Assembly: GCA_043228905.1 (NCBI GenBank)
Contig: JBHGNT010000012.1
Coordinates: forward strand, 5,456,001 to 5,520,000
DNA: 64,000 bases
Origin: Azolla caroliniana
Taxonomy: Eukaryota; Plantae; Polypodiophyta
Direction: 5' to 3'
The notes under the pieces are model-generated. The model was given only the letters and a program-made list of their open reading frames with translations. It was not told the origin of the DNA and ran no database searches. Below are positions 1,398-30,500 of the stretch, one piece after another; the first letter of the stretch is position 1; each line of letters starts with the position of its first letter. The position numbers and the translations under genes are program-made.

Positions 1398-3006
1398 ATG
1401 GCCTTTGCCTACCCCCGTTTTAACGGCGAAACCAACGCCGCAACTCATATTCGCATGTTCCTTAATGTTTGGAATGTGAACCACATGGCGCAGAGCCTTT
1501 CGAAGGCGGTAGCGCACCAGTCGAAAATGACGGAGTTTAGGTTAACATTGGATGGGCGAGCGGCCTTTTGGCATTCACAGATGGATTTACCAGCAATAAC
1601 AACCTTCGATCAGCTGCAATCCGCTTTCTTGCGGTTCTTCCATCGGAGGGTCCCACAACGTGAAATCTTCGGACAGTTCTACACGATTAAGCAACTGCCG
1701 ACCGAGACGATAGCAGACTTCAACTTACGTTTCCAAAATTTACAGTGGAAACTAGAACGGAGCCCCGCGGAGGACGAGGCTTGAGAAACATTTCTGGCAG
1801 CATTACGCCGACCCATCCGGGCAACGCTCAACAACAATAGCGTGAAAGGGGAAATAGAGGATATGGTCATTGAATGAGCATTACAGCTCAAGTTGAACGA
1901 CGAGGAGGAAAGGTTTTCTATGTCCTCCTTACGACAAGCGTTACCCCAGGACGAGGAACACCAGTTTCGTCAAGCAATCCAGTGCACGATTTGCTTGAAC
2001 TCGGGGCATTCTGTAGTGGAGCGCAATATGCGAATCCACTGCCCAATTTGCCACTCGAAGCCTCACATAGTCGACCAATGCGAATACAATATGTTGAACA
2101 GAGCCACTCCCGCAGTCCGTAGCATGGACACCTAGCGTCCACCACACCGGACTGAACAAAGGAGGCAAGAAGATCGACCACGGTATAGGGATCGCAACCC
2201 ACGGGATGACCGGCACCACTGGATTCGCCGAAATCACAACGATTCCGAGGAGGCCGAACCAGAGGACGAGGATTATCGTGGACATCCGAGTTATGCTAAG
2301 GGGGGTCGGCGCTACGAGAATCACCGACCGACAAACAAACGGGGCGGCTTTAATGGTTATCGTGGTAAGCCGCAGCAGTATCGAGATCACCGGCGTTGCG
2401 ACGAAAGCTCGGGAGATGAGCGACACCAGGAACAACGACGGGACCAACAACAACCACCGCGTACGTTCCGACAAACGAGGCCGGACCGCGAGGAGCAAGT
2501 AGCACCAGGGGAGCGGCACACACCACCAGGAGCCGAGAAGGGTGAATCAAGCATCCATTGTTTTATTTGTCAGCAGCCCGGACATTATGCCACGCAATGC
2601 CCAACACGCAAGGGAAAGGGGCCCGATGTCAAGACGATTATGCCGGAAGTGCGGAAAGTCACAACACGCCAGCGAACAAAAACGGCTGATTGGGTTGCGC
2701 AAGATGAGATACATCAACAAGCCCAAGCATGGGTGGAAAAAGCAAACGTGACCAATACAGAGCGCATGCGGAAGGAGTCCGCGAACGCAAGGGAGCAAGC
2801 AGAGGACAAAGGACCGGTCACGGACCCCATTTGGCAGGCGTTAGCGGGCTGTGAGATAACGTTAACCATGGAGAAACTGTTGCAGCTAGTCCCACGCTTT
2901 CGCCAGACCATGGAAGAACGGGTGACAGGCATACCCGGGGTGAGTGTCGCTACAAACCTTACAGACGTTAGCGACGGACCGTTGGTAGTGGATCAGCACA
3001 ACCCGG
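1398..3006 (+). pseudogene. gag of Athila-like Gypsy (disrupted)
   Basis: Retrotrans_gag-like YPRFNG...LDGRAAFW...QLPTETIADFNLRF; zinc knuckles CPICHSKPHIVDQC and CFICQQPGHYATQC (~2558); frame resumes at 15412 after the insertions. Confidence 0.85.
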
Positions 3007-3680
3007 TGTCGTGAAGAAAACCGCCCACAAGAGGAATCGGAGGAACAAGGCGTGGGAAACGGCTCTACACACACGCGCGCCAAGAAGTACATACGAGGAT
3101 CCTAGGTGGGTAGATTCGGTTGGTATGCAGTTAATGCCAAACGGCCTCTTGACGGGATATAAAAAAGGAAGAGGAAGAATAGGAAAAGATATCTCGCGCG
3201 GAGAGGACGAAGTGCTGCGGAACCGATTTCGAAGCTCCTCTCTCACTCCTGCTCTCTCTGTCTTCTGCTCCATCGCGTACCTGTGCAGGTTTCGAGGAGG
3301 CTTGCGCTGTTCCGTGGAACGCCCCGAGTGCGTCCTGCAGCACCTCCGACCTGTTTTCCCCTTTCCGTGCGTCGCGACATACAGGGGTCGGCATCTGTTC
3401 GCCGCCCTGTTCGTTTTCGTTAGTATCTATTTCGTGCCCCACCGTGGGTTGTAACACTTTAGCTGTTATTTTCTTGCATTCATAAGTACATATCTTCAGT
3501 GGTTGCGTCCATCTGTGTCGGCGTTTATTTGTGATCTCTGTTTGTTGGGCCGTGTCCCTGTGCAATCTTCGGTTCTGTGTAATCGGGTCTCTCCTTCTCC
3601 TCTCTCTCTCTTGCTCTTCGGTCCAAGACCCCCCGTGGTCCCTCCTCCTTTCTGCACGCAAGGGCGTAGCAACCCCGACA
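3007..3680 (+). repeat. 5' LTR of Trp-primed Gypsy copy 1
   Basis: Near-identical to 9411-10083. Confidence 0.97.
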
Positions 3681-3683
3681 TCT

Positions 3684-3701
3684 TGGTGAACCCGACGTGA
3701 A
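3684..3701 (+). promoter_or_regulatory. Primer-binding site complementary to tRNA-Trp 3' end
   Basis: TGGTGAACCCGACGTGAA is the reverse complement of TTCACGTCGGGTTCACCA, the plant cytosolic tRNA-Trp(CCA) 3' end as I recall it. Confidence 0.88.
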
Positions 3702-3723
3702 AGAGGCGGCAGAAGAGCAGGAA

Positions 3724-5850
3724 ATGAGAGGGTCGGATCTCGCAGAGGCCATGGCTTCGGCCGTGGATCGGATTGTAAACGCGCGCGAGAGCACCGGTGC
3801 CCTCGACAGAGCTATTGAGGCGGTCGTCGGCACGATCGGCCGGTTCGATGGGAAGGATGCCACGAAGTATTTGGCGTCCTACGGTGCAGAGATGCTGATG
3901 CGGGACATTCCGGAAGAAAGGCGTCTTGCCGGATTTCCCCGAGTGGCGATGCCGAGCATCCACGCGGAGGTGCTCGAGGTGCGGATGGAGAGCCGTACCT
4001 GGGAGGAGTTCGAAGGTCGGCTCCTAGAGAAATACGGGCTGGACGACGCGCTCCGGCTTTCGAAGCGAAGGTTCATGGAATGGGTGGAGTCCCCGGGGAA
4101 GGGAAGAAACGCGTCGGCGCTCCTCCGGGAGTTCGAGGAAAACTTTGCGCGCCTTTCGGCGCTTGACCGAACCATCCTGGACACGAGCCGGGTCTTGCTG
4201 TTTGTCAAGTCGGTCGACGAGCGGGATCGGGAGCAAGTGGGCTTCTTGCTGGAAACCGAAGACGGGCTCACTACGGACTGGGCGGCTGTCAGGAAGGTCT
4301 GTGGCCGTTTCGACAAACGGCGAGAATGGGCGGATAACGGTGCAACCGGGTCGGGCTCGGTCGCAGCAAGGAAGCTCGATCCAGCGCCACAGGTGCGAAA
4401 GGAAGAGACCCGAGAGTGGTTGGATACCGGTTCGGCTCCGACCGGCGTAGTCAGAGGCTCAACCGGAGGAGCGGCGCTGGAGGAATTGACAAAGGCGATA
4501 AAGGACCTCCAAATCGCGCAGGCCCGAAGGGAAGGAGGCGAACCGGCTCGTGACCGACGGCCGGCGGCAGGAAACAGGTGCATGTGGTGCGATGAAGTCG
4601 GCCACATTCGGAAGGACTGCGGCGACTTCGCGGAGGCGCTGAGGAACAGGGTGGTGTACCTGTGGGAAGGACGGGTGCATGCCAGCGACACCCGAAGGGC
4701 CCTGAGCCGAAACGATGGAAAAGGCGGTATGAAAAGGGTGATGGAAGAGGCGGCGGCCCGACACGCGGAAACCGTCCACTACTCGACGTCAGCCGGCATT
4801 CGAGTCGGGGGCGGCGAGGCCCGAAGGGAAAGCGAAGCCGGATTCTGGCCGACGATGCTGGGAGGCCTTGCCGGTGCAGGGCTTAAAAGGGAGGAATCGG
4901 ACCGTGCGGAGAAACGGGTACGGGAGATGACCGGGTGGAGCGACCCGGTCGAGGAGAAGACGGGCTTCGTGGAAGCCGCTTGCCGGAACTACGAGGCTCT
5001 GGTAGAAGAGAAGCGGGTGGGGAAACCCGGGACGACCGGGCCCTCACAACGATACGAGACCCGGTCCGGGCCGCGACGGGACGAAGCCGGCGGGGCCGGT
5101 ACGCGAGATAAACCCCAGAAGGGCGGGTACCGTCTGGGGACGGAGATAGAAAGAACCACGGACTTACGAAAGGTCCTGGAGGAACGGATCCTCGACAGCA
5201 AGGTGGAGCTGTCGTTACGGGAGGTGCTGGGAATCGCCAAGAAGGAGTTCCACGACTCCATCGTGGACTTGGTGAAACGGAAGAGGCTGTCGACGGAGAC
5301 AGAACCGGAAAGACCGGTGGAAGTGCGGACGACGCACCTAGACGACATGGCGCTGGGAGACGAGTGGGCGGAAAGCCACTATTCGAGACCACACTGGGCC
5401 CGAGCGACCACGGAAACCCCGGTGAAGATCGGCGATGTCCAGGAACCGGTGATAGCTTTGGTGGACCACGGATCGGAGATCAATTTGATGTCCATGGACT
5501 TCTATAAGAAGGGCAAATGGCCGATCAACACCAAGCACGGGTGGAAAATAAGGGCAGCAACGCGCGCCACCGAGGAACTGCACGGGGCCTGTCCGAATGT
5601 GCGGGTCAAGATTGGCGACGTCGAGATTGACCAACACTTCTTCGTGCAGGAGACGTCTTCGCACCCGGTCATTCTGGGAGAACCGTACATTACGGCGGCG
5701 CGGATGGAGACCAAAGTGCTGGACAATGGTTCGGCCTACGCGAGGGTCAAAAGCCAAGACGGGCGCCATTCGGTCCAGTTTCTGACGGTAAGGCCGAACC
5801 ACGAACGTAACCGTGATTCCCTCGGTTCCGAAAACCGAGAGGATTTTTAG
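3724..5850 (+). CDS. Gag-protease polyprotein (ORF1), intact
   Basis: ATG at 3724; CCHC knuckle CMWCDEVGHIRKDC; aspartic protease ALVDHGSEINLM...VILGEPY; TAG at 5848-5850. Confidence 0.92.
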   Translation: MRGSDLAEAMASAVDRIVNARESTGALDRAIEAVVGTIGRFDGKDATKYLASYGAEMLMRDIPEERRLAGFPRVAMPSIHAEVLEVRMESRTWEEFEGRLLEKYGLDDALRLSKRRFMEWVESPGKGRNASALLREFEENFARLSALDRTILDTSRVLLFVKSVDERDREQVGFLLETEDGLTTDWAAVRKVCGRFDKRREWADNGATGSGSVAARKLDPAPQVRKEETREWLDTGSAPTGVVRGSTGGAALEELTKAIKDLQIAQARREGGEPARDRRPAAGNRCMWCDEVGHIRKDCGDFAEALRNRVVYLWEGRVHASDTRRALSRNDGKGGMKRVMEEAAARHAETVHYSTSAGIRVGGGEARRESEAGFWPTMLGGLAGAGLKREESDRAEKRVREMTGWSDPVEEKTGFVEAACRNYEALVEEKRVGKPGTTGPSQRYETRSGPRRDEAGGAGTRDKPQKGGYRLGTEIERTTDLRKVLEERILDSKVELSLREVLGIAKKEFHDSIVDLVKRKRLSTETEPERPVEVRTTHLDDMALGDEWAESHYSRPHWARATTETPVKIGDVQEPVIALVDHGSEINLMSMDFYKKGKWPINTKHGWKIRAATRATEELHGACPNVRVKIGDVEIDQHFFVQETSSHPVILGEPYITAARMETKVLDNGSAYARVKSQDGRHSVQFLTVRPNHERNRDSLGSENREDF

Positions 5851-5910
5851 AGAGGACTGCCAAGGCGTGGGGCCGCGACAGTCCGGACACCCCGGGAAAA
5901 CCCCACACCT
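5841..5910 (+). promoter_or_regulatory. Predicted -1 ribosomal frameshift signal (GGAUUUU plus H-type pseudoknot)
   Basis: G GAT TTT TAG; the -1 frame is open from here into RT; stem 1 5854-5859/5879-5884, stem 2 5863-5872/5901-5910; conserved in copy 2. Confidence 0.8.
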
Positions 5911-8900
5911 GTACGATAAAACCGAAGAAACCTTGTACCATAGGTAGGGAATTTTTGTTCTCCGACAGCGGAGCGTGCACGACAGTCGGCATCGGCGGCC
6001 GAGAGAAGAGAAAGGCGGAGGGGAGACTTCGAGCGTGCGGAGTTCTCGGCCCTGACGAGGAAATCGACGGAGCCGTGGAGGCGGTCTCATTCGACGACAC
6101 CTTGGGAATGCTGGGAAAGGTAGTCGAAGAAGGCCTTAACGAAGACCGGACGATACCGGTGTGTTCCGAGGAGATGTATGAAGTCATCGCGGACTTCGGT
6201 CGAGGGCTCGAGTCAGTTCGGACGGCCCACGTGAGCACCAAGTACAAGACTGTGGACCGGAAGGTAAGGCCAGTCGCGGCACCCTTACCGGAGGACAGCG
6301 CGTCGAGAATCAAAGGGGTTGCATCGGACCCTAGTCTACGAGATCCGGCCTGCATAGGACACACCTTTACCGACGAGACGCTCCGAGAGCTCAAAATCGG
6401 TGGGGGCGGGTTCCTACTGCCGGCGGAGGAAGACCGGTTTCGGAGAATGCTCGGAAGGCACGGGAAAGCCTTCGCATTCTCGCCGGAGGAAATCGGGTGC
6501 GTTGACCCGACGATCGTGGAGCCGATGGTGATATTCACGGTACCGCATGTACCATGGAATCTCAAGCCAATCCCGGTTCCGAGAGCTCACATCCCGAAGT
6601 TGATGGAGCTGCTGAGGCAGAAAGTTGATATGGGAATTCTCGAGCCGTCGAGCGCCCCATATTCGAATCGATGGTTTACCGTACCGAAGAAAAACGGTTC
6701 GTTGCGCTTCATCCAGGACCTGCAGCCGGTCAATCGAGTGACGATTCGGAACGCAGGGATCGGACCGACCATAGACGAGTTCGCGGAGGCCTTCGCCGGA
6801 AGGTCAATTTACTCGGTCGGGGATCTATACTCAGGGTACGACCAGTTCCAGCTAGCCGTGGAGAGCAGAGACATTACGACGATGCGAACTCCCCTCGGCC
6901 TAGTTCGGATGTGTACACTGCCGCAAGGAGGGACCAACTCGGTGGCCCACATGGTGAATGCGATGAACAAGGTTCTGAGGGACTGTATCCCGGACATCAC
7001 CATGCCGTTTCTGGACGACATTCCGATCAAAGGATGCCCGGTGGAAGAAAGGGACGAGACGATCGGGCCGGACGGATGCCGGCGATTCGTGGCGACGCAC
7101 ATCAACGACTGCGAGAAGGTGCTGCAAAGACTAGAGGATGCGAGACTCACCTTCTCCGGGGAGAAGTCGGCCTTCGGGCAGTCAGAAATCATGGTGGTCG
7201 GACACCTGTGCGGACCATATGGCCGGAAACCGTCTCCGGCAAAGGTAGAAGCCATCTCCGCGATGAAGCCCGACTGCAGCTCGGTCACGGAATTACGGAG
7301 ATTCCTGGGGGCATGCGCGTTCTACCACATATGGATCCCGCATTACGCACACGTCGCGGAGCCACTGTACGGGTTGCTGAAAAAGGGGTGAAGGTTCGAA
7401 TGGCTAGACGAGCATGCGGAAACGGTCCGGAGGCTGAAAGAGGCCCTTGCAGCGGCACCGGCACTCCGGAAGGCGGTATACGGGAAGGGTACCCCGGTAT
7501 TCATAACGGTGGATACCAGTCCGACCGGGATCGGATGGGTCGTGAACCAGGAAGACGAGGACGGCAATCGGTTTCCGATCCGATTCGGCGCGAAAGTCCT
7601 CAGTGAACGGCAGCGAGGATACGCCCAGGTTAAACGCGAACTCTGGGGTATTGTTTCGGCGGTTAAGGCCGACAAAGACTACCTGATAGGGACAGAAGTG
7701 ATCATCGAGACGGATTGCCTGCCGATTCTCGGTATGGTTTCCGGATGCGCGACTCCGGACCTGGCGATGCTCAGGTGGATAGCGTACATCAAGTCCCTGG
7801 ACCCGGAAATACGACACATTTCCGGGAAAGACAACGCCATGGCCGACATGCTTTCGAGGGCGAGGTTCGACGACGAGGGCGGCATGGTTTCGGAAGACGA
7901 AGAAGTCGGCGTGGATTTCTTCGAGACGGCACACATAACGACCGACGGGATGAGCACTCCGGCGCTTAACGAGTTCGACGCGAGCAAGTACGACGGGGAG
8001 TGGCTGCAGATCGGCGGGTTTTTGAAGGCAATGACGCCCGATGCGTCATGGACGAAGGACGAGGCCAACCGGATCCGGAAGAAAGCATATCGATTCTTTC
8101 TCCGAGATGGGCATTTGTGGAAGCACCCGAAGAAGAGGAACGGCGTCCCGCTCCGGGTGGTGGCGATGAAGGAAGAACAGGAGGAGCTACTGGCGGCCTA
8201 CCACGACAGCCCTTGGGCTGGACACCGTGGAACGTGGGCGACATTTGAGAAGCTGAAGGGGAAGTACTGGTGGCCGGGATTGTACCGGGACGTGCATCGG
8301 TTCGTGTCAACTTGCGAGAGTTGTCAGATGCACTCGATAGTCCGACACCGGGACGGGCTTCACCCTACGTACCCTCCGACTATCCACTTCAAATGGATGG
8401 TAGATCTGGTGACGATGCCGATGGGGGTAGGACAGATGCGGTATCTGGTCCTAGCACGGGAAGACCTGACGAACCAGGTGGAAGGCCGAGCCCTTCAGAA
8501 CAAGACGACCGCGGCCGTGTGTCGGTTCCTGATCGAGGACGTGATATGCCGGTACGGGTGCGTCGGGAAGATCGTGGCTGACCGAGGGGAGTTGGACGCC
8601 GAAGAAGCCGCGGAGCTGTTCGACCGGCTGGGGGTCAAGCTCTCGCTCACCGCTGCGTACAATCCGGAGGCGAATGGAAAGGTGGAGCGCGGACACGGAC
8701 CGATCGTCAAGGCGTTGGTTCGGGCATGCGGAGGCCGAATCGGTGACTGGCCGCGGCTCCTACCTTATGCCTTGTGGGCAGACCGGACCACGCACAGTTC
8801 GGTAACCGGGTACATGCCGACAGAGCTCATGTTCGGCCAGAAGCCGATCATGCCGATTGAACGGACGATCTCCTCGTGGGCAACGGTCGACTGGAGGGAC

Positions 8901-9338
8901 GAGATGAGCCGGGAGGAGTTGTTGGCCGCGCGTATACGACAGCTCGAGCGGAGACCGGAGGACGTGGCACTGGCTACGGAGAAGCTCCGGGTGGCGAGGA
9001 CAAAGAACAAAGCCCGGTTCGACCGAACGCACCGGCTACGACCGAAGAAAATCGACGAAGGTGACTGGGTGCTCGTCTACGACAGCAGCCTCGACAACCA
9101 GCACCGAGCAACGCGGAAGTTCGCACAGAGATGGTTCGGGCCGTACACGGTACAGAGCGCCAACGACAACGGGACGTATCATCTGGCGGAACTCGACGGT
9201 ACGAGAATAACGATACCCGTGGCCGGGAAGAGGATCAAAGCTTTCAAGAAGCGGCACGACAACGAACCCGACCCGATTCTCCTGGACAGCAGCGACGACC
9301 GATCCGAGGCCGAGGAAGGGCCGGCAGGCGAAGAGTAA
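5847..9338 (+). pseudogene. RT-RNase H-integrase (ORF2, -1 frame) with a single premature TGA at 7389-7391
   Basis: RT DLYSGYDQ...LPQGGTNS...PFLDD; RH VDTSPTGIG...ETDC...ADMLSR; IN HHCC, WMVD/ADRGE/KVE, WFGPY; ORFs 5955-7391 and 7509-9338 share one frame. Confidence 0.93.
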
Positions 9339-9410
9339 AGACGGGCCGGTTTTCTCCGTGCCAACTTAATTTGGCGCATACCGGTGGATGCGCGGTTAGG
9401 TGGGGGCGGA

Positions 9411-10083
9411 TGTCGTGAAGAAAACCGCCCACAAGAGGAATCGGAGGAACAAGGCGTGGGAAACGGCTCTACACACACGCGCGCCAAGAAGTACATACGA
9501 GGATCCTAGGTGGGTAGATTCGGTTGGTATGCAGTTAATGCCAAACGGCCTCTTGACGGGATATAAAAAAGGAAGAGGAAGAATAGGAAAAGATATCTCG
9601 CGCGGAGAGGACGAAGTGTTGCGGAACCGATTTCGAAGCTCCTCTCTCACTCCTGCTCTCTCTGTCTTCTGCTCCATCGCGTACCTGTGCAGGTTTCGAG
9701 GAGGCTTGCGCTGTTCCGTGGAACGCCCCGAGTGCGTCCTGCAGCACCTCCGACCTGTTTTCCCCTTTCCGTGCGTCGCGACATACAGGGGTCGGCATCT
9801 GTTCGCCGCCCTGTTCGTTTTCGTTAGTATCTATTTCGTGCCCCACCGTGGGTTGTAACACTTTAGCTGTTATTTTCTTGCATTCATAAGTACATATCTT
9901 CAGTGGTTGCGTCCATCTGTGTCGGCGTTTATTTGTGATCTCTGTTTGTTGGGCCGTGTCCCTGTGCAATCTTCGGTTCTGTGTAATCGGGTCTCTCCTT
10001 CTCCTCTCTCTCTCTTGCTCTTCGGTCCAAGACCCCCGTGGTCCCTCCTCCTTTCTGCACGCAAGGGCGTAGCAACCCCGACA
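9411..10083 (+). repeat. 3' LTR of Trp-primed Gypsy copy 1
   Basis: Preceded by G-rich PPT-like aggtgggggcgga (9398-9410). Confidence 0.97.
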
Positions 10084-10087
10084 CCGG

Positions 10088-10675
10088 TGTTAGGGAATCG
10101 ACGGTTTTAAAAAAACCTTCAGCTTTCGGCCAAAACCGAGGAAAACACGAGTCAGTGCAGCAGTAAATCCAAAACACAGAGAGAGACTCGAATGCACAGG
10201 GTTTAGCGTGGAAAACCCTAAACGGGAAAAAAACCACGGGAGTGCAAGACTCCAACTATCACTATACGCAGGGAATGTACAATGGCGAGCTGCAAGGCGA
10301 CGACCTTGAGCTTGCTGTCCTCGCCACAGGCGGCGGTATTACACAGAGGCGTCGACCTCTTCCTTTCTCTCTCTCTCTCTCGGCTCCTCTCACTTCGCTC
10401 CCTCTAAGTGGAAAACAAAAAATGAGCAACAACACAAAACTGTTTGCCCTAAGTCATATTTATACACATATGACTTTCGGGCTATTTACAAATATAGCCT
10501 CAAGGGCCCTTGGCAAACATATTCACAAATATGTCCCCGCATCCGGATCTCTCTCCGGGTACATACGTCATCCGGCTCCGTAGCCGGGGTCTTCGTCATC
10601 CGGCTCCGTAACCGCAACCGGGCTTGCCGTCATTCATCTCCGGACATCCCATCCGGAGGGACCGAGATCCCAACA
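10088..10675 (-). repeat. 3' LTR of Copia C (588 bp)
   Basis: Differs from the 5' LTR by about 6 substitutions and lacks one 28-bp repeat unit. Confidence 0.96.
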
Positions 10676-10685
10676 AACTCCCCCT

Positions 10686-13600
10686 TCACTTCGGCATGGG
10701 ATGTCTCTCCAATCCGATCCTCTTCCGGCATGCTTCCAGCTTGTCGGGTGTGAGCACCTTGGTCAGCATATCCGACCCGTTCTCGTCCGTGTGGATCTTC
10801 GTCAGTGCGAACTCCTTGTCTTCTATCCTTTCCCGGATCCAGTGATATCTTCGCTGGATGTGCTTCGTCCGGGAGTGATAGGCCGCGTTCTTCGCAAGGT
10901 GGATGGCACTCTGACTGTCGCAGTAGAGTCGGTACTCCTCCTGCCGGATACCGAGCTCTCTAATGAAGTCCTTCATCCATATCATTTCCTTGCCGGCTTC
11001 AACAGCCGCCATGTACTCCGCCTCCGTGGTTGACAATGCAACCGTCTTCTGCAGCCTCGACTGCCACGAAACAGCTCCCCCTGCATACGTCATCACATAC
11101 CCTGATGTGGACCGGCTGGTATCTGCATCAGCCGACATATCCGAATCGGTAAAGCCGTCGAGTTCGGGCTTACCGGAGCCGAATCGGAGGCACACGTTTT
11201 CCGTGCCCTTCAGGTATCGGAGTATCCACTTGGCCGCGTTCCAGTGTTCTTTGCCGGGATTGCTCATGTACCGGCTCACCACTCCGACTGCATATCCTAT
11301 GTCCGGTCTTGTACACACCATTGCGTACATCAAGCTTCCGACGGCAGAGGCGTATGGTACTTTCATCATGTCCTCCTTCTCAGCCTTTGTCTTCGGGCTT
11401 TGCTTGCTGGACAACTTGCAGTTTGCCGGGAGGGTTGACCCGACCGGTCTTGCTTCCGACATGTTGAACCGGTGAAGCACCTTTGTCACGTACTTCTCCT
11501 GTGACAGCCACAACTGCTTCTTCTTCCGGTCCCGGATGATGTGCATCCCTAGTATTTGCCTCGCCGGACCCAGGTCCTTCATTGAGAAGGTTCGGTGAAG
11601 CGCTTTCTTCAGCATCCGTATCTTGGCCTGGTCCCGTCCGACGATCAACATGTCGTCCACGTACAGGAGGAGTGTTAGGAAGTCTCCTCCTTCGAACTTC
11701 TTCACAAACACGCAGTGATCGGACTGCGTTTTGTGGTACCCTTCGTCGGTCATGAAAGAGTCGAACTTCCGGTACCATTGCCGGGGAGCCTGCTTCAGTC
11801 CGTAAAGGCTCTTCTTCAACCGGCATACCAGGTGCTCCTTCCCTTTCTTCTCGAATCCTTCCGGTTGCTGCATGTAGATCTCTTCTTCGAGGTCACCGTG
11901 AAGGAATGCCGTCTTCACGTCCATCTGTTCTACCTCGAGGTCCATGCTTGCCGCTATGCTCAGCACCGTCCGGATGGAGGTCATCTTCACTACCGGGGCA
12001 AATATCTCATCGAAGTCGACGCCCTTTTTCTGCTGGAACCCCTTCACCACGATCCTGGCTTTGTATCTCGGGGGGTTGCCGGCATCTCCCGGTTTTAGCT
12101 TGAACACCCACTTGTTTCGAAGTGCCCGCTTTCCTTTCGGCAACTCCACAAGTTCATATGTGTGGTTCTCATGCAGGGAATCCATCTCCTCCTGCATGGC
12201 ACTTAACCACCTGCGGTCATGGGTGTCAAGCTTTGCTTCTTCAAAACTCTCCGGCTCCCCCTCGTCGGTTAGCAGCACGTGCTCTGGTTCCGGAAATCTC
12301 CGGGGGGCCCTTCTCTCTCTTAGAGGATATCTCCGTTCCGGAGCTTCGGTAACCGGCTCCTCCGTTTCCTCTTCATCCGAATCCATTTCGAGATCGGGGC
12401 CGGTTCCGGTATCAGTTTCATCTTCCTCGGCCGGTTCTGTTTCTACACCGTCTTCAGCCGGATCCTCGAGTGCTAACCGGTCCCTTGCCGGTCGGGACTG
12501 CTCCTCGTAGAGTTGATCCTCACCGGTCGACTTGGAGCTTTTCATCTTCTTCTCCGACTCCCAGTCGGCGAGTGTCTTGTCCTCCATGAAGATGATATCA
12601 CGACTCCGAAATATCTTTTTGTCGACCGGGTCCCATACTCGGTAGCCGAACTCGTCATCGCCGTAACCGAGGAATATGCATGGTCGGGTCTTTGGATCTA
12701 GCTTTCCTCTCCGGTCCTTTGCCACATGCACATATGCGAGACACCCGAACACCTTCAGATGCCGGTAGGATACTTCCCTACCGGTCCACAATCTTTGCGG
12801 CGTGTCTCCGTCCAAAGGTACTGAGGGTGATCTGTTTATCACGTATGTCGCCGTCGACATTGCCTCAGCCCAAAACCCCTTGGGTAATTTCGCATGCGCC
12901 AGCATACTCCGGACCCTCTCCATTATGGTCCGGGTCATCCTCTCGGCCAGCCCGTTCAGTTCCGGCGTCTTCGGCACAGTAAACTCGAGCCGGATTCCCT
13001 TCGAGCGACAGTACTCCTCGAACTGCCCCCGGTATTCCCCTCCGTTATCCGCTCGTATCGCTTTCAGCTTCTTGCCGGATTCCCTTTCCACTCTCGCGTG
13101 GAGTTCTTTGAAGACGCACAACACTTGGTCCTTTGTCTTCAACAGTGCCGTCCACAGCTTCCGGCTGTGGTCATCAATGAATGTCACGAAGTACTGGGCT
13201 CCGCCATGTGACTTCGTTTCTACTTGACACACGTCAGTGTGCACCAACTCCAATGGTGCGCTACGTCTCGTCGGTGGCCTTGAGTGGAAGGAGGTTCGGT
13301 TCTGCTTACCGGCCAGGCAATCGGTGCACTTCTCCAGGTGCACGTGCTTCACTGGAATAAGGTTGTCTTCTGCAAGCCTCTTCATCCCCTTCTCACTCAT
13401 GTGGCAAAGTCTCTTGTGCCACAGCTCACCGGCAGTGTCGGCTGCCACGTTCAACTCCTCCGGACACAACCAGGCATTCATAAGGTACAGTGTGTTGACT
13501 TTCCGGGCCCGAGCCACTATCAGGCTCCCCTTGCTGAACTTCATTACGCAGTTCCGGATGCTACCTGTGTAGCCTTCATCGTCTAGCCTCCCGGCCGAAA

Positions 13601-14759
13601 TCAGGTTCAATCGAACCTCCGGAACGTGTCGGACATCCTTCAGCAGCATTTTGCATCCGGTCGAGGTTGTCAACCACACGTCTCCTATGCCGGCAATCCA
13701 GCACGTACCTTCATTTCCCATCCGAACACAGCCATGCTCACCGGCTGTGTAGGATGAGAAGTATCTTCTTTCCGGGGTCAGGTGGAACGACGCTCCGGAA
13801 TCGACCACCCAGGTAGTCTCATCGCCGGCAATGTTTAGTTTACCTTCTTCGGTGATGAGCATGATCTCCTCTTCACTTGCCGCGAGTGCCGTCGTTCCTT
13901 TCCGGTCCTGCCCTCGCCGATCCGAACCATTCCGGTCCGTGGCTCCCCGGTAAGCACCGTTCCGTTCCGAAGACTTCTTCGAATCGGTGTCGTCGGCTCC
14001 GTTGTCTTTTCGGTAATGCCGACAATTCTTCCGGAAGTGCCCCGGCTTCCCACAGTGGAAGCATGTGGGCCTTCCTCTTGACTGCGACCGGGTCCCCGAC
14101 TTCTCCCGTCTTTGCGGACTCCGGTTCCGTTGTCTTCCCCGATCCGATTCGGTAAGCAGCATCTTCGGATCGGAGGCTGGTTCTTTATCTCTCCGACGCG
14201 CTTCTTCATTCAAAATTCTTGTCTTTACCGTTTGTAGAGACAAGTTATCTTCGGTGCAGGAGGTGCTGAGAGTCACCACCAAGTTCTCCCAGCTTTCCGG
14301 CAATGTACACATCAGGATGATGGCTTGCATTGCATCCTCCAACGGGAACTTGATCGCCGCAAGCTGGTTCACGAGTCCCATGAACGTGCTTACGTGTTCC
14401 ACCATACTCTCGCCGTCCCGGTACTTGAGGTTCACTATCTTCCTCATCAGGGAGGTCCGGTTCAACGCATTCTTCTTCTCGTAGAGGCCCGACAGCTTCC
14501 GCCACATCTCATATGCGTTGGTGTCGTTCGCCACATGTTGTAGAACGCTCACGTCGACGTATTGCCGAATGGTTGCAACGGCTTTCCGGTTCAGAAGCCT
14601 CCATTCCGTCTCAAGTACCCCCTTGGGTATTTCCGACCTGTCGATCGGTTCATACAGGTCCCGAACAATGAGCAGATCCTCCATCTTTATCTTCCAGTCG
14701 GCGTAGTTCTGCGCATTCAGCACCATCATCCCCGGCTGCCCGTTGCTGCCGCCTTCCAT
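10686..14759 (-). CDS. Copia Gag-Pol polyprotein, uninterrupted (~1357 aa from ATG 14759)
   Basis: CFHCGKPGHFRKNC; WVVDSGAS; LWHKRLCH...CTDC; VHTD/ADNGGE/LAE; YVDDM; FTDSD...TEAEY...YCDS...SDMLTK. Confidence 0.96.
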   Translation of the reverse strand: MEGGSNGQPGMMVLNAQNYADWKIKMEDLLIVRDLYEPIDRSEIPKGVLETEWRLLNRKAVATIRQYVDVSVLQHVANDTNAYEMWRKLSGLYEKKNALNRTSLMRKIVNLKYRDGESMVEHVSTFMGLVNQLAAIKFPLEDAMQAIILMCTLPESWENLVVTLSTSCTEDNLSLQTVKTRILNEEARRRDKEPASDPKMLLTESDRGRQRNRSPQRREKSGTRSQSRGRPTCFHCGKPGHFRKNCRHYRKDNGADDTDSKKSSERNGAYRGATDRNGSDRRGQDRKGTTALAASEEEIMLITEEGKLNIAGDETTWVVDSGASFHLTPERRYFSSYTAGEHGCVRMGNEGTCWIAGIGDVWLTTSTGCKMLLKDVRHVPEVRLNLISAGRLDDEGYTGSIRNCVMKFSKGSLIVARARKVNTLYLMNAWLCPEELNVAADTAGELWHKRLCHMSEKGMKRLAEDNLIPVKHVHLEKCTDCLAGKQNRTSFHSRPPTRRSAPLELVHTDVCQVETKSHGGAQYFVTFIDDHSRKLWTALLKTKDQVLCVFKELHARVERESGKKLKAIRADNGGEYRGQFEEYCRSKGIRLEFTVPKTPELNGLAERMTRTIMERVRSMLAHAKLPKGFWAEAMSTATYVINRSPSVPLDGDTPQRLWTGREVSYRHLKVFGCLAYVHVAKDRRGKLDPKTRPCIFLGYGDDEFGYRVWDPVDKKIFRSRDIIFMEDKTLADWESEKKMKSSKSTGEDQLYEEQSRPARDRLALEDPAEDGVETEPAEEDETDTGTGPDLEMDSDEEETEEPVTEAPERRYPLRERRAPRRFPEPEHVLLTDEGEPESFEEAKLDTHDRRWLSAMQEEMDSLHENHTYELVELPKGKRALRNKWVFKLKPGDAGNPPRYKARIVVKGFQQKKGVDFDEIFAPVVKMTSIRTVLSIAASMDLEVEQMDVKTAFLHGDLEEEIYMQQPEGFEKKGKEHLVCRLKKSLYGLKQAPRQWYRKFDSFMTDEGYHKTQSDHCVFVKKFEGGDFLTLLLYVDDMLIVGRDQAKIRMLKKALHRTFSMKDLGPARQILGMHIIRDRKKKQLWLSQEKYVTKVLHRFNMSEARPVGSTLPANCKLSSKQSPKTKAEKEDMMKVPYASAVGSLMYAMVCTRPDIGYAVGVVSRYMSNPGKEHWNAAKWILRYLKGTENVCLRFGSGKPELDGFTDSDMSADADTSRSTSGYVMTYAGGAVSWQSRLQKTVALSTTEAEYMAAVEAGKEMIWMKDFIRELGIRQEEYRLYCDSQSAIHLAKNAAYHSRTKHIQRRYHWIRERIEDKEFALTKIHTDENGSDMLTKVLTPDKLEACRKRIGLERHPMPK

Positions 14760-14790
14760 TGTCTGCACTGCAGTCGCTCTGATACCAGAT

Positions 14791-15406
14791 TGTTAGGGAA
14801 TCGACGGTTTTAAAAAAACCTTCAGCTTTCGGCCACAACCGAGGGAAACACGAGTCAGTGCAGCAGTAAATCCAAAACACAGAGAGAGACTCGAATGCAC
14901 AGGGTTTAGCGTGGAAAACCCTAAACGGGAAAAAAACCACGGGAGTGCAAGACTCCAACTATCACTATACGCAGGGAATGTACAATGGCGAGCTGCAAGG
15001 CGACGACCTTGAGCTTGCTGTCCTCGCCACGGGCGGCGGTATTACACAAAGGCGTCGACCTCTTCCTTTCTCTCTCTCTCTCTCGGCTCCTCTCACTTCG
15101 CTCCCTCTAAGTGGAAAACAAAAAATGAGCAACAACACAAAACTATTTGCCCTAAGTCATATTTATACACATATGACTTTCGGGCTATTTACAAATATAG
15201 CCTCAAGGGCCCTTAGCAAACATATTCACAAATATGTCCCCGCATCCGGATCTCTCTCCGGGTACATACGTCATCCGGCTCCGTAGCCGGGGTCTTCGTC
15301 ATCCGGCTCCGTAGCCGGGGTCTTCGTCATCCGGCTCCGTAACCGCAACCGGGCTTGCCGTCATTCATCTCCGGACATCCCATCCGGAGGGACCGAGATC
15401 CCAACA
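14791..15406 (-). repeat. 5' LTR of Copia C (616 bp)
   Basis: TGTTGGGA...CCCTAACA on the minus strand; adjacent iMet PBS. Confidence 0.96.
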
Positions 15407-15411
15407 CCCGG

Positions 15412-18400
15412 CTATTACATTAATATTACACGGACAGGAAATTCTGGGATGTGTAATCGACGGCGGCTCAGGCGTCAATGTAATTAGCGCGAAAACTTGC
15501 GAGCAGTTAAACATTTCAGAATGGGAGGCTTGCCCATTCTGGCTCCGAATGGCAGATACCCGCTCAGTACGACCATTGGGGTTAATTCGCAAAATAGGCA
15601 TTATCGTGGGCGAACACCGCTTCGACATCTCAGTGGTCGTCCTCGCCTTGGACACCCCAGGGGCGTACCCAGTGCTTCTGGGCAGACCATGGCTCCGGGC
15701 AACAAATATCAAGCAGAGCTGGCAACACAAGTGTATCAGTTTCCGACACGGACACACCAAGGTTCGCGTACCTACGAAAGGAAGCACGCCACAACCCAAG
15801 GGTATAACACCATTATACGTAGAAGATATAAATATGTTGGTTGGGGTGGAGGATGCAGAATTAGAGGCATACCTAGATGAGCACCCACGAATCATTCCGC
15901 TGTTCGAAATCGACGTCATCGCAACCTCGGCAGGATATGCCACGGCCACTATTCCCCACGAAGAGGCTTATGAACCAAACCCAGAGTCCATATTGGAACT
16001 CATCAGAGCACGGGCGGCATTCGAAAGGGAAATGGAGATTTCACGACGAGTCACCGCTTCCGCCCTGGAAGAAGTAAATGTGGGTACGGAATCAGAGCCC
16101 CGTTTCCTCTCCATCACAAAGGAATTAAGGCCGGACTAGAGAAACACGATGATCGCACTACTCAAGGAATATAAGGATGTGTTCGCTTGGGCTCACGAGG
16201 ACATGAAGGGGTTAGATCCCAAGTTCTATCAGCATAAGATCAATTTAGCAACCGACACGAAACCCGTCCAACAACGCCGCTACCGCATGAACCCGAACTA
16301 CGCGACCCGCATGAAAGAAGAAATTGAGAAGCTCTTGAAGGCGGGGTTCATACGACCAGTTAAACAAGCAACATGGTTAAGCCTGTAAGTGGTCGTTCCA
16401 AAGAAAAACGGCAAAATACGAGTATGCGTAGATTACCGAAAATTAAACGTCGTAACCATTACGGACGCATTTCCCTTACCCTTTACCGATAGCGTACTGG
16501 ACACCGTCGCAGGACATGAGTGTTGGGAGACAAGTCCCTCCGGATGGGAAGGGTGAAGAACAGTGCCGATGAACAAACTCGACCGAGGCCGAAACCGTAT
16601 GAGGTGGACCCGGCTACGGAGAGCCGGATGATGCAGACCCGGTGAAGACCGGATGAGGAGTACCCGGCTACGGAGAGCCGGATGATGCAGACCCGATGAA
16701 GACCGAATGAGGAGTACCCGGCTACGGAGAGCCGGATGATACAGACCCGGTGAAAACCGAATGAGGAGTACCCGGCTACGGAGAGCCGGATGGTACAGAC
16801 CCGGTGAGAACCGGATGAAGAGACATATTCGTAAATATGTTTCTGAGAGTCCATCGAGACTATATTTGTAAATAGCCGAAAAGTCATATTAGTATAAATA
16901 TGACTTAGGGCAAACTTTTAGCGTGTTGTTGTCATTTTCTTGTTGGTGCAAGAAGAGAGAGCGTGTAACAGTGTACAGAGAGAGAGAGAGAGAGAAAGAG
17001 GTCGCTGCCTCTGTTGTAACCGCCGCCTGTGGCGAAGATCTGTGAGCACGAGGTCGGTGCCTCAGTGAACTCATTGTTGTACATTCCATCATAGTGATAG
17101 TTTGCAGCCTGTGGGCTGCCGTGGTTTTTCCCCTAGTTTGGGGTTTTCCACGTAAACCTCCTGTGCACCTTTTCTCTCCTTTGTGTCGTGTTTTTTTCCG
17201 TTTCCTGTTTTCTGTGTATGATTCTAAGCTTGGTTGTGGCCGAGCGTTGTGCATAACGAGCCTTGAGTTCCCGTCAATGAGATGTACAGTTTTTTAGATG
17301 GCTTCAATGGCTATAACCAGGTACGCATGCATCCCGAGGACCAAGAAAAGACGACATTTGTCACGAACTAGGGAGTATAGGTGGCAGTCGTCATGATGTT
17401 CGGGCTAAAGACGGCGCCGACAACATTTCAACAGACAATTACGGAGATCTTTGGGGAATACATTCCGGCGTTCATGCAAGTTTTTTAAGACGACTTTGCG
17501 GTATATGGGAGAACAATAGACCATTTTACGCATTTACAACTATGCCTGGAACGTTGCTGCACCGCACGCTTAAGTCTGAATCCACGAAATGTGCTTTCAG
17601 CGTGACCAGCGGGACTCTCCTGGGCCATATAGTCTGCAAGGAGGGAATAGCGGTTGATCTGAACAAGATCTCCGCGATTACGCAAGCCAAAACTCCGGCA
17701 AAAGCCAAATCGCTTAGCAGGTTTTTAGGACAAATATGGTGGCATAGTCAGATGATACGGTATTTGGCGGACTTCGCCACGTCGTTACATGATGTCATAT
17801 ATCGGACTCCTTTCCAATGGACTGCAACGGAGGATAAGGCCTATGAGGCACTTAAGATAATGCTCACACAAGCCCCCGTCGTACAACCACCAGTTTGGGC
17901 GAAGCCATTCCACGTGTTTGTCGACGCCTCGGACATAGCAATAGGAAGTGCACTAATGCAGCTCACGGAACCAAACTGGTACCGGCCAGTATACTACGCT
18001 AGTCGCAAATTATCAAGTGCAGAGCGTAACTATTCCACGACGGAGCGGGAGGCGCTAGGGATGATCTATAGCATCAATAAATTCCGGCATTATTTACTAG
18101 GAAGGAAATTCACGTTCCACGTGGATCATTCGGCGCTGCTGTATTTGGTGGAGAAACAAGCCCTGACGGGGAAATTGGCGCGGTGGATGCTGATGCTCCA
18201 AGAATTCGATTTCGTAATCCGGCACCGACCAGGGACGCAACACGCAGTGGCGGATTTTTTGAGCAGACTCGAGAATGGAGAAACAATACAGAAAGATGAC
18301 GACGATTTTCCGGACGCCAACATCCTCCGGGTAGCAGCACCAGCAGAAAGAACGGAATCGACCTTTCGGAACCAGTGGCTTATGCAAATGACGTACTTTT

Positions 18401-24549: not shown

Positions 24550-27500
24550 TGTCGAGTTGTTACGATCTTCGCGTACGGAAAGAGGCGGGACCGCGGGGGC
24601 CTTGAACCAAGGAGCAGGAGAAAGAAGAGAGGGAGGGAGAAGTCTTGCAGAAACACAAAGGGAGAAGGAGAGAACAAAGTCTTAATTACAAATCAAACGA
24701 TTACAACCAGCAAGCCGGCAACGGACCCAACTCAGGTGGACACACACACAATGCTCACACGCCAAGCACAAAAACGTGAAGGGAGAGCCTCTGATGGAGG
24801 CGCACGGGCTATCCACGAAGCAGAGGCGGCGATCTCCAAAACCCGTAGAGAATGACCACCGAAGGAGGAGAGAGAGAGCTCGGTACACGGTCCGACAGCA
24901 CTTCGTCCTCGCTAATCCACGATACCCCCATAGGCCGTCGAGGCAGGCCGTTGCACCCTCGTTTTCATCAAATTATTCTCTGTCCTATCGAACAGAGATA
25001 CTCGTTGATTCCCAAAACTTTCGATGCGTCACATCTAGTCTATTTACACCCACCGTCCTACTCCTAGTTATGTACAAGGTATTAATTGGTGTGGGAAAGT
25101 GTAGGGCCAGTTCATGCGCCCAGCTTCGCCGATTCCACTTTTGGCCGGTTTTCTTCACAACATCCACCCCCACCAAACTGCGCATCCACCGGTATGCGCC
25201 GAAGAGGGACAGATACCGGAGAAAACCGGCTCACGTTCACTCATCGCTCTCTGAATTATCAGCGTCCCCGAACCGATCGTCGTCGTTATCGCTCCCCCGC
25301 TCCGGCTCATCTTCGTACCGCTTCTTGAACACTTTAATCCGCTTCCCGGCTACCGGCACCGCCAATTGTGTCTCGTCGAGCTCCGCAAGATGGTACGTGT
25401 TGTTGCCATTTGTGCCCGAACCATCTCCTCACGAATTTGCGGGTCGCCTTGTGCTGGTTGTCGAGGCTGCTGTCGTAAACCAACACCCAGTCGCCTTCCT
25501 CAATCTTCTTCGGTTGTAGCTGGTGCGTCCAGTTGAACCGGGTTTTGTTTCATTCCCTTGTCGTGCGTAGCTTCTCCTTCGCCCGTTCCACGTCCTCTGA
25601 TCTCCGCTCAAGTTGTCGGATCCACGACGCCAACAACTCTTCCCAGCTCATTTCTTCCTTCCAGCCCACCGCAGCCCACGAAGAAATTGTCCGTTCCACC
25701 GGCATGATCGGTTTCTGCCCGTACATTAGTTCCACCGGCATGAACCATGTTACCGAATTGTGCGTAGTCCGGTCCGCCCACAACACATAGGGTAAGAGCC
25801 GCGGCTAGTTTCCGACTTGGCCCCCACACGCCCGTACTAACGCTTTGACGATTGGTCCGTGTCCGCGTTCCACCTTCCCGTTAGCCTACGGATTGTAAGC
25901 CATGGTGAGCGAGAGTTTAACCCCTAGCCGGTCAAACAGCTCTTCCGCCTCTTCCACGTCTAGTTCCCTGCAGTCGGCCACGATCTTGCCGACGCACCCA
26001 TACCGGCATACCACATCTTCGATTAGAAACTGGCACACGGCCGCAATCGTTTTGTTCTACAACGCTCGGCCTTCCACCTGGTTCGTCAAGTCTTCCCGAG
26101 CCAGCACCAAATACCACATTTGCCCTACCCCCATCGGCATCGTCACCAGATCCACCATCCACTTGAAGTGGACGGTCGGAGGGTACGTCGGGTGAAGCTC
26201 GTCTCGATGTCGGACTATGGAGTGCATCTGACAGCTTTCGCAAGTCGTTACAAACTGATGCACATCCCGATATAGTCCCGGCCACCAGTACTTCCCCTTC
26301 AGCTTCTCAAATGTGACCCATGTCCCGCGGTGTCCGGCCCAAGGACTCTCGTGGTACTCCATAAGCAACGCTTTCTGCTCGTCCTCCCTCGCCACTAAGC
26401 AGAGTGGGGTGTCGCGTCGCTTCTTCCGGTGCTTCCATATGCGCCCTTCCCGTAGGAAGAACCGGTACGCCTTCCTCCGCACCTGGCAGGCCTCTTCCCT
26501 CGTCCACGCCGCGTCCGGCGTCATTGTCCATAGGAACCTCCCGACTCGGAGCCACTGTCCGTCGTAATCACTCTCGTGGAACTTGTTTAGCGCCGGAGTG
26601 CTCCCCTTTCTTGTTGTAATGTTGGCTGACCCGAAGAAGTCCTCGCCGACTTCTTCGTTATCCGAAACCATATCGTCCTCGTCGTTAAACTGCGCCCTTG
26701 AAAGCATATCAGCCATGGCATTATCTTTCCCGGAGATGTGCCGTATCTCCGGGTTCAGGGACTTGATGTACGCGATCCACCTGAGCACCGCCAGGTCCGG
26801 AGTTGCGCATCCGAAGACCATACCCAGAATCGTGACGGGAACTAAACGCTCCTTATGCACAACGCTCGGCCACAACCAAGCTTAGAATCATACACAAAAA
26901 ACAAGAATGAATGCACGACACAGTGAAAAGAAGAGTACACAGGATGTTTACGTGGAAAACCCAAACTAGGGAAAAACCACGGCAACCCACAGGCTGCAAA
27001 CTATCACTATGTTACAGTGTACAATAGTAAAGCACCGAGGCAACAACCTTGAGCTTTCTATCTTCGCCACAGGCGGCGGTTACAACAGAGGCAACGACCT
27101 CTTCCTCTCTCTCTCTCTCTCTCTGTACACAGTTACGCGCTCTGATCTAGCACAAACAAGAATAACAACAACCTCTACATCACACACAATAAGTTTGCCC
27201 TAAGTCATATTTACACTAATATGACTTTTCGGCTATTTACAAATATAGTCTCGATGGACTATCAGAAACATATTTACGAATATGTCTCTTCATCCGGTGA
27301 GCACTCCTCACCGGGGTACTCCTCATCCGGTTCTCACCGGGTCTGCACCATCCGGCTCTCCGAAGCCGGGTACTCCTCATCCAGTTTCGGCCTCGGCCAA
27401 GTTTGCTCATCAGCACTGTTCATCTCCCTTCCCATCCGGAGGGACCTGTCTCCCAACAAATTGGTAGGCAGTCTATCTCGATGATCACTTCCGTCTCGAT

Positions 27501-30500
27501 CAGATAGTCCTTGTCGGCCTTGACTGCCGAAACGATACCCCATAGCTCGTGCTTAACTTGGGCGTATCCTCGCTGCCGCTCGCTCAATACCTTCGCCCCG
27601 AACCGGATCGGGAACCGTACGTCGTCCTTGTCCTCCTGACTGATCACCCACCCGATCCCAGTCGGGCTCGTGTCCACCATCACGTAGATGGGGACTTCCT
27701 TGCTGTAAACCGCTTTCCGGAGAGCCGATGCCGCGGCGAGCGCCTCCTTCAGTCTCCGGACCGACTCCATGTGCCCGTCTCTCCACTTGAATTTACACCC
27801 TTTCTTCAATAGCCCGTAGAGTTGTTCCGCAACATGTGCGTAGTGCGGAATCTAGATATGGTAGAACGCGTACGCACCCAAGAATCTGCGGACCTTCGTA
27901 ACCGACCCGCAGTCGTCCTTCATCACAGAGATGGCTTCTACCTTTGCTGGGGACGGTTTCCAGCCATAGGGCCCGCACAGGTGTCCGACTACCAGGATCT
28001 CCGTCTACCCGAACGTTGATTTCCCTCCGGAGAAGGTGAGTCGCGCGCTCTCGAGCCTTTGCAGCACCTTATCGCAGTCGTTGATGTGGTTCACGACGAA
28101 CCTCCAGCATCCGTCCGGCCCGACCATTTCGTCTGCATCCTCCACCGGACACCCTTTTATCGGTATGTCGTCTAGAAACGGCATAGTGATGTCCGGGATG
28201 CAGTCCCTCATCACCTTGTTCATTGCGCCACCGAATTCATTCCTCCTTGTGATAGGGTACACATCTGCACCAAGCCGAGAGGAGTCCACATTGTCGTGAT
28301 GTCCCTGCTCTCTACGGCTAGTTGGAATTGGTCGTACCCTGAGTATAAGTCACTGACCGAATAGATCGACCTCCTGGCGGAGGCCTCCGCGAACTCGTCT
28401 ATGGTCGACCCGATTCCTGCATTACGGATGGTCACCTTGTTGACCGGTTGCAGGTCCTATATAAAGCGCAATGTGTCGTTCTTCTTTGGCACCGTGAACC
28501 ACCGATTCGAGTATGGGGCACTCGACGGTTCGAGGATGCCCATATCCACCTTCTACTTCAGTAGCTCCATCAGCATCGGGATGTGAGCTATGGGCACCGA
28601 AATCAGCTTGAGATTCCACAGCACATGCGGTACCGTGAAGATCACCATTGGCTCGACGATTGTCGGGTCTACGCACCCGATCTCCTCCGGCGAGAATGCG
28701 AAGGCCTTCCCGTGACTTCCGAGAATCCTTCGAAACCAGTCCTCCACCTTCGGCAGTAGAAAGCCACCTCCACCAACCTTGAGCTCCCGCAGCGTTACAT
28801 CGGTGAACCATTGCCCTATGCCGACTGGATTCCGTAAACTTGGATCCGATGCGACCCCCTTTATCCACTCTCTGTTGCCCTCCGGCAAGGGTGCCGCAAC
28901 TGGCCTCACCTTCCGGTCCACAGTCTTGTGCTTCGTATCCATGCGGGCCATTCGATTCGACCCGATCCTCTCCCCGAAGTACGCGATGACTTCTACATTC
29001 CCATCGAGCTAACCGGAACGGTTTGGTCTTCGCTAAGGCCTTTACCGACCACCTCTCGTAATTCGCCCAAGGTGTCATCAAAAGAGACCGCCTCCACGGC
29101 GCCGCTAATTTCTTCGTCGGGGGAGAGGACTCCACACTCCCTAAGTCGTCTCTCCGCCCGCTTCCTCTCCTGGCTACTGATGCCGGTTAGTGTCGACCTC
29201 CATTTTCGGAGAACCAAAATTTCCTACCTATAATACATGTGTGGGGTTCTTTTGGGGTCTCCGGACTATCGCGGCCCCACGCCTTCATAGCCCTCTCTAA
29301 AAATCCCCTCGGTTGTCGGTGCCGAGGGTCTCACAGTTTCGCTCGTGGTTGGGTCGCACTGTCATGAATTGTACGGAATGCCGACCGTCTTGGCTCTTGA
29401 CGCGCGCATACACCGAACCATTGTTCAGTACTTTCGTCTCCATGCATGTTGCCGTAATGTACAGTTTGCCAAGAATTACCGGGTGCGAGGAAGTCTCCTG
29501 CACGAAGAAATGTTGATCTATCTCAACGTCGTTGATCTTCACGCGTACATTCGGGCACACACCATGCAGCTCCTCTGTAGCGCGCGTCGCCGCGCGTATC
29601 TTCCACCCGTGCTTGGTGTTGATCGGCCATTTCCCCTTTTTATAGAAGTCCATGGACATCAGGTTGATCTCCAAACCGTGGTCTACTAATGCCACCACCG
29701 GCTCCTGGACGTCGTCGATCCGAAGAGGGGTTTCCGTAGTGGCCCTAGCCCAATGCGGTTTCGCGTAGTGGCTTTCCGCCAACTCATCCTCTAGGGCCGT
29801 GTCTTCTAAGTGCGTCATCCACACTTCCATCGGCCTCTCCGGTTCCGGCTCCGTCGAGAGCCTCTTCCGCTTCACCAAGTCCACGATGGAGTCGTGGAAC
29901 TCCTTCTTGGCGATTCCCAGCACCTCTCATAACGACATCTCAACCTTGCTATCAAGAATTATCTCTTCCAGGACCTTCCGCAAGTCCGTTGTATGTTCGA
30001 TTTCAGTGCTCAGCCGGAAATCGGCCTGCTTCTTCTTCTCCGATGCGCCGGTGTTGGCAGCCTCATTCGGCTTCGGTCCGAACCGGGTCTAGTACCGCTG
30101 CGAGGGGCCACCCCCCCGGGCCTTTCCCACGCGTTTGTCTTCTACCAGAACCTCGTAGTTCTAGCATGCAGCTGCCACGAAGCCAGTCTTTTCTTCCACT
30201 GGGTCGTCCTATCCAGTGACCTCCCGAATCCGCTGTTCCGCGCGGTCTGCCTCTTCCTTCTTCAGTCGTACTCCGGAGAGACCCTCTAGCACCAGCGGCC
30301 AAAATCTAGAGTCCTTCGCTTTCCGGGCCTCATCACCCCCGACCCAGATTCCCGCCGACGTCGAGTAGTTAACGGCCTCTGCATGTCGTGTTGTGGCCTC
30401 TTCCATCAACCGCTTCATTCCGCCACGCCCTATATTCAACTCTAGGACTTTCCAGGTCTCGCTCGTGTGCACCTGCCCGTTCCAGAGGTACACCATGTTG

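Follow-up and report, generated by a model that had tools for sequence, protein, structure and literature searches.

How are reverse transcriptase and integrase made from a retrotransposon whose first reading frame stops just ahead of them? The question arises at a Gypsy element in the window, by which we mean the whole 64,000-nucleotide stretch of Azolla caroliniana DNA analysed here. ORF1 of this element encodes Gag and protease (PR) and stops directly after G GAU UUU. A preliminary description of the locus had read this break as a virus-style -1 frameshift between PR and reverse transcriptase (RT), with an H-type pseudoknot downstream. Conservation, covariation, frame preservation and selection among related elements now bear this reading out, and we consider it very probable, judging from the sequences compared, that the predicted pseudoknot drives a minority of ribosomes to slip by -1 into the frame of RT, RNase H and integrase.

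The element and its protease

By its sequence features, copy 1 (3007-10083) is a Gypsy LTR retrotransposon of the Phygy type, with all of its parts on the forward strand. It is flanked by the target-site duplication CCGG, of the form NCGN (3003-3006, repeated at 10084-10087), and runs from a 5' LTR with TG...CA ends (3007-3680) to a 3' LTR (9411-10083) that is preceded by a purine-rich tract (9390-9410). Because the LTRs are 99.7% identical, the insertion appears to be young. The primer-binding site (3684-3700) lies 3 nt past the 5' LTR; its 17-mer, which starts with TGG and may be complementary to tRNA-Trp, the primer expected of Phygy elements, is common to 36 of 80 related loci. ORF1 (Gag-PR, DUF4100) encodes 708 amino acids counted from the first ATG (3724-5850; 3670-5850 from stop to stop) and contains a CX2CX4HX4C knuckle in Gag (4579-4620) and a protease domain at its end (5407-5787). 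Pol occupies the -1 frame (5841-9338), beginning with a transframe linker of 132 codons that matches no Pfam domain (5841-6236) and continuing through RT (about 6681-7205), RNase H (about 7401-7790) and integrase (about 8169-8666). The domain order is Gag(CCHC)-PR, RT, RNase H, integrase, with no chromodomain, aRH or extra ORF. A premature in-frame stop at 7389-7391, a position at which a sense codon is found in 22 of 23 scorable sequences, breaks the Pol of copy 1, so that full Pol cannot be made from this copy.

A second copy on the minus strand (24550-32100; 75-78% identity), with the NCGN duplication ACGC, is decayed: ORF1 has five stops, and Pol has both frameshifts and stops. Copy 1 lies in the left 5-bp target duplication (CCCGG; 10084-10088 and 15407-15411) of an adjacent Copia element (10088-15406, minus strand), whose 1368-codon ORF is open, and for this reason the Gypsy copy is likely the later insertion. 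Two solo-LTR-like insertions are related to the Copia LTR. One (16521-17276) has split an older Gypsy RT and contains a tandem repeat of 54 nt; the other (26833-27458) interrupts copy 2. Over 33000-64000 the GC content drops from about 53% to 37% and the window enters a host gene region, in which a glycosyl hydrolase 28 exon lies at 61854-62450 (minus strand).

Assignment to Phygy follows the survey of Neumann et al. 2019 (PMC6317226; this and all other papers are cited from excerpts), in which a 4-bp NCGN target duplication is the signature of that lineage. Copy 1 resembles Phygy in this duplication, in having neither an extra ORF nor a chromodomain, in an interior filled by coding sequence and in its close relatives in Physcomitrium patens, and differs in its length of 7.1 kb, slightly under the 7.7-10 kb of the excerpted survey. 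Among the matches listed, ORF1 matches many P. patens proteins at 50-68% identity. Its named relatives come from Physcomitrium, Riccia and Adiantum, and basidiomycetes occur among the look-alike clusters of one distant relative. A link of the family to Ylt1 was sought and not established. Scans of viral contigs did not find relatives of the element, ARAGORN found no tRNA in the 10 examined of 120 primer-binding-site pattern matches in those contigs, and an Rfam search of the window gave no match.

The protease was detected by fold search alone. A sequence search of the PDB returned no protease match and Pfam stayed below its cut-off, while Foldseek matched the domain at the end of ORF1 to Ddi1 and retroviral proteases with probability 1.0; the AlphaFold blocks across the domain mostly score 80-94. 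Since this retropepsin fold sits at the end of ORF1, the protease lies upstream of the frameshift site, as the preliminary description had supposed. The active-site motif is D-H-G (5464-5472) rather than D-T/S-G, also in nearly all homologs where a motif was found. The alpharetrovirus (MAV/RSV) protease, which is equimolar with Gag, has low specific activity (PMC3185560, excerpt), and by analogy one may ask whether the D-H-G motif reflects the same property here.

Slip site, predicted pseudoknot and linker

The coordinates given in the preliminary description proved exact: the heptamer GGATTTT occupies 5841-5847, the stop TAG that ends ORF1 follows at 5848-5850 within a 6-nt spacer (5848-5853), and the -1 frame is open, in copy 1 from 5817 into RT. 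The heptamer lies in the 0 frame as G GAU UUU, where re-pairing is possible, and belongs to a known exception type among -1 slippery sites (PMC5009743, PMC4737148, excerpts). The two strands of the window together have 11 GGATTTT sites, of which only 2, those of the two element copies, passed a test for a two-stem pseudoknot; 30 of 3000 random positions pass the same test.

We compared 82 sequences, namely the best 80 of 169 metagenome loci and both window copies; the loci are repeats on assembled metagenome contigs, and many come from similarly numbered assemblies. An in-frame slippery heptamer is present in ORF1 in 76 of the 82 (66 GGATTTT, 4 GGATTTC, 3 GGTTTTT, 2 AGATTTT and 1 GGGTTTT), its position having been set by hand in five sequences. 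Of the remaining six, two are contig ends, two pass into other sequence, and two have an out-of-frame GGATTTT. All 38 representatives have G as the last base of the codon preceding GAT, a codon that stands for 9 amino acids in all; the background is 31%, and the search pattern had left this first heptamer base free. A stop codon follows the heptamer directly in 69 of 76 sequences, and its identity is free (TAG 30, TAA 28, TGA 11). This matches the result for pea enation mosaic virus (PEMV), whose G GAU UUU directs -1 frameshifting in wheat-germ extract with any stop and with no sense codon (PMC4737148, excerpt).

The same ends are seen in proteins. The C-termini of 120 of 227 ORF1 homologs include DF in 68, GF in 3, NF in 3 and PL/PF in 24, the last mostly five residues past DF/GF; the remaining homologs are mostly gene models or truncated. 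Ends in DF, GF or NF also occur in distant ORF1 representatives. In a sub-branch of three loci (L057, L072, L078) and about 24 proteins, the ORF1 stop lies five codons past the slip site, inside a stem 1 of 11-13 bp, and ORF1 ends DFxxxP[LF]. Two distant proteins, P0191 and P0187, are predicted to run from PR to RT in one frame and may be single-ORF forms or gene-model artefacts.

Downstream of the slip site there is, as its covariation indicates, a putative stimulatory structure, which we predict to be an H-type pseudoknot. Stem 1 had been described as GGACTG (5854-5859) pairing with CAGTCC (5879-5884); these pairs are present, and in the family the stem is refined to 8 bp beginning 6 nt past the heptamer, within the 5-9 nt range of programmed -1 signals (5854-5861 with 5877-5884, pair 7 being a C.A mismatch in copy 1). 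An 11-nt G-rich loop pairs in nearly all members with a C-rich tract about 11-16 nt beyond stem 1. The preliminary description had drawn this stem 2 as AGGCGTGGGG (5863-5872) with CCCCACACCT (5901-5910). Nine of its 10 pairs do form in copy 1, but the 10-bp length is not conserved, and the conserved part is a core of about 6 bp, here GUGGGG (5867-5872) with CCCCAC (5901-5906). In copy 2 the signal (29306-29241, heptamer 29306-29300) retains heptamer, stop, spacer and GTGGGG/CCCCAC together with both of the stem-1 changes that had been described. Because copy 2 is decayed, comparison of the two copies alone is weak evidence, and the claim of covariation in stem 1 now has its support from the family-wide alignment.

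This structure-blind alignment holds 34 representatives: clustering at 90% gave 38, of which 4 were set aside for their longer stem. In stem 1 the outer 8 pairs are formed in 257 of 272 cells, and pairs 9-10 are mostly unformed. Stem 1 covariation is 0.254, a value reached by none of 500 shuffles and compared with at most 0.155 in slid controls; at the compensatory G-C/A-U position the pair is A-U in 27, G-U in 4 and G-C in 1. For stem 2, the cognate duplexes of 25 distinct loops stand at -11.8 kcal/mol against -10.1 for permuted ones (3 of 20000), and two control windows were null; these stem permutation tests remove relatedness among the sequences only in part. By parsimony on a tree built from the protease region (33 sequences), compensatory double changes number 4 for stem 1 and 7 for stem 2, the latter count leaning high because registers were picked for best pairing. 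The co-changes exceed those of re-paired columns, with 0 and 1 of 2000 as high for stems 1 and 2, respectively. The four members set aside have stems of 11-13 bp and loops that also pair downstream. We note that nested folding of the region is ordinary (z -0.4 to -1.8) and that the minimum-energy fold of copy 1 favours the stem-2 hairpin over stem 1.

The frame downstream of the heptamer is preserved as well. An RT-proximal anchor makes 57 sequences scorable and is absent in 19; 52 of the 57 can be read without a stop in the -1 frame between heptamer and RT, 2 in the +1/-2 frame, and 3 are broken. Three loci considered as other-frame forms (L074, L076, L077) reach RT through internal indels with stops and were treated as decayed. 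The linker occurs in 11 lengths, from 120 to 155 codons, all in frame, and neither of the other two frames is open in any of the 52; its dN/dS of 0.21-0.61 (7 pairs) points to purifying selection. Any shift in L017 and L067 is confined to the heptamer, since their -1 frame becomes open just 10 nt ahead of the stop.

Proposed mechanism and competing explanations

We propose that a ribosome with GAU in its P site and UUU in its A site would meet the knot, and that a minority of ribosomes would re-pair on GGA and UUU and go on to make Gag-PR-Pol. Most would terminate and yield Gag-PR, with perhaps a few percent giving Gag-PR-Pol. The adjacent stop may aid the slip, as in umbraviruses, and PR would be made 1:1 with Gag, as in alpharetroviruses and as had been suggested at the outset.

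A quite improbable alternative is that Pol comes from termination-reinitiation or internal initiation and that the pseudoknot serves, for example, packaging. It is most relevant to L049 and L062, the two loci with an open +1/-2 frame, in which a Pol-frame ATG lies 16 nt and 7 nt, respectively, ahead of the heptamer, and viruses do reinitiate at upstream AUGs (PMC3542737, excerpt). These ATGs, however, are non-homologous in position and of a kind common in that frame (5 and 4 per 150 nt), no UGGGA motif is found upstream in either locus, and the -1 frame of copy 1 has no Met until 89 codons into the linker. Reinitiation would also leave the invariant U-run and the fixed spacer unexplained.

Splicing has a precedent at this very border: Ogre elements are split there and spliced (PMC6317226, excerpt), so the PR-RT junction might be an intron removed from some transcripts. 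That the linker stays in frame over 11 lengths and under purifying selection makes this very improbable, and between -30 and +12 of the site no GT is conserved in more than 30% of the representatives; the copy 1 family lacks the non-coding intron between PR and RT that marks the Ogre type. Poly(A) RNA from two runs with a related organism label (88 and 49 reads over the junction) gave no joint among 15 of 87 rows and no indel, which is weak evidence but concordant with an unspliced frameshift. The same reads bear on transcriptional slippage, in which the run of 5-6 T at the site would gain a base in some mRNAs. No indel is listed over the site at a depth of about 8-15, and such slippage, which we regard as extremely unlikely, needs neither a pseudoknot at fixed spacing nor a conserved GG. 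An inactivating indel with stems arisen by chance is scarcely credible as an account of the break: both window copies are defective elsewhere, but the same break recurs with covariation in dozens of families, with protein identities as low as about 55%, and 29 of 76 loci have at least 1000 open codons past it.

A programmed -1 frameshift is thus the reading that we retain. Its stems are conserved, the family is not a single ORF and the rows inspected for the sparse RNA reads show no splice joint, points on which the preliminary description had staked its proposal.

A sister clade and known systems

L049 and L062 carry the same structure behind a different slip site. In both (signals at 2834-2900 and 2496-2560, respectively) ORF1 ends CAG GTT TTT, one further codon and a stop, and stem 1 starts 5 nt past the heptamer, versus 6 nt in the -1 families. 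The 31-nt core of the stem-loop is retained in both, and so is stem 2, with compensated pairing (GAGGGU/ACCCUC). The -1 frame is shut after 2 codons in L049 and 7 in L062, while the +1/-2 frame runs through RT and integrase for 1181 and 1106 codons, and the dN/dS of the linker is 0.21. The two loci form one clade (support 100/100) amid -1 families and are 78% identical over the protease region. Five further complete proteins from the L049 cluster end QVFD. The L049 junction is covered by contigs of four runs with four organism labels (42, 15, 3 and 35); one of these runs may itself be the source. Gaps whose position is not given occur in three minor contigs, and no indel is listed. The 10 variant rows all lie outside the slip site, the spacer and the 5' strand of stem 1, and the variants within the knot are in loops or keep the pairing. 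L019, another GGTTTTT locus, was considered as a -2 member and left out because it is decayed, with stops in every frame.

These sequences suggested to us that one pseudoknot probably serves both directions, -1 in most families and -2 in a clade whose frame lies one base nearer and whose slip site is AG GUU UUU, a reading that rests on two elements. The ribosome would start one base closer to the knot and slip by -2 on AG GUU UUU, and its register after the slip would be that of the -1 families (NGG/GGA, then UUU, 7 nt ahead of stem 1). A +1 slip in place of -2 and reinitiation at the nearby ATGs are the rival readings for this clade. In its working the signal resembles the arterivirus nsp2TF -2 motif, RG GUU UUU (PMC11818727, PMC5009743, excerpts), without being a member: the heptamer AG GUU UUU and a downstream ORF in the +1/-2 frame are alike, and the -1 frame of L049 stops at once. 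In arteriviruses a protein complex binds about 10 nt downstream, whereas here an RNA pseudoknot lies 5 nt downstream. The arterivirus protein-binding motif CCCANCUCC is absent in L049 and L062, where the position 10 nt downstream is, by eye, stem 1. Lin et al. 2012 (PMC3458567, excerpt) found -2 favoured in vitro by spacers 1-2 nt shorter; they used engineered U6A cassettes, while L049/L062 and the -1 families would be a natural, evolved pair. An excerpted review (PMC5009743) names phage Mu, arteriviruses and Trichomonas vaginalis virus 1 as -2 cases and notes relatives that use -1.

With umbraviruses and dianthoviruses the -1 signal shares G GAU UUU, an adjacent stop of free identity and a 5-6 nt spacer (PMC4737148, PMC5009743, excerpts), but the stimulator of those viruses is a bulged hairpin whose pairing partner lies kilobases away, whereas that of the copy 1 family would be a compact, local H-type pseudoknot. 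Alpharetroviruses likewise have the protease in the Gag frame and a pseudoknot-stimulated -1 shift into Pol (PMC3185560, PMC5009743, excerpts); the copy 1 family differs as a plant retrotransposon without env, with a different heptamer and a D-H-G motif. Among plant elements, Ogre and Retand are split at the same PR/RT border, by a partly spliced intron and a single in-frame stop, respectively, in contrast to the overlap with slippery site and pseudoknot seen here. No lineage in the excerpted table of PMC6317226 has GAG-PROT overlapping RT-RH-INT; Tcn1 and Selgy are given there with Gag overlapping PR-RT, direction not stated. For the plant elements of a 2003 survey, the 2016 review (PMC5009743, excerpt) places pol in +1. 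In the open-access literature that we searched, we found neither an account of such a signal for Phygy elements or for those of bryophytes nor -2 shifting in a retrotransposon. From sequence comparison, a programmed frameshift signal of a known kind is well supported here, in a position and lineage for which no description was found.

If the -2 reading is true, these elements would provide a retrotransposon -2 frameshift driven solely by RNA structure, and with it a natural test of how the mRNA-tension model explains the direction of the slip. The sister clade is likely a natural switch from -1 to -2, and the 6-nt/-1 and 5-nt/-2 clades make a natural pair for asking what determines slip direction. 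For the family as a whole, the signal accounts for gene models that end at 'DF' and supplies the coding layout that the excerpted survey of Neumann et al. lists as 'ND' for the whole Phygy lineage. The predicted frameshift would be a third way, after the Ogre intron and the Retand stop, to ration RT and integrase at the protease/RT border.
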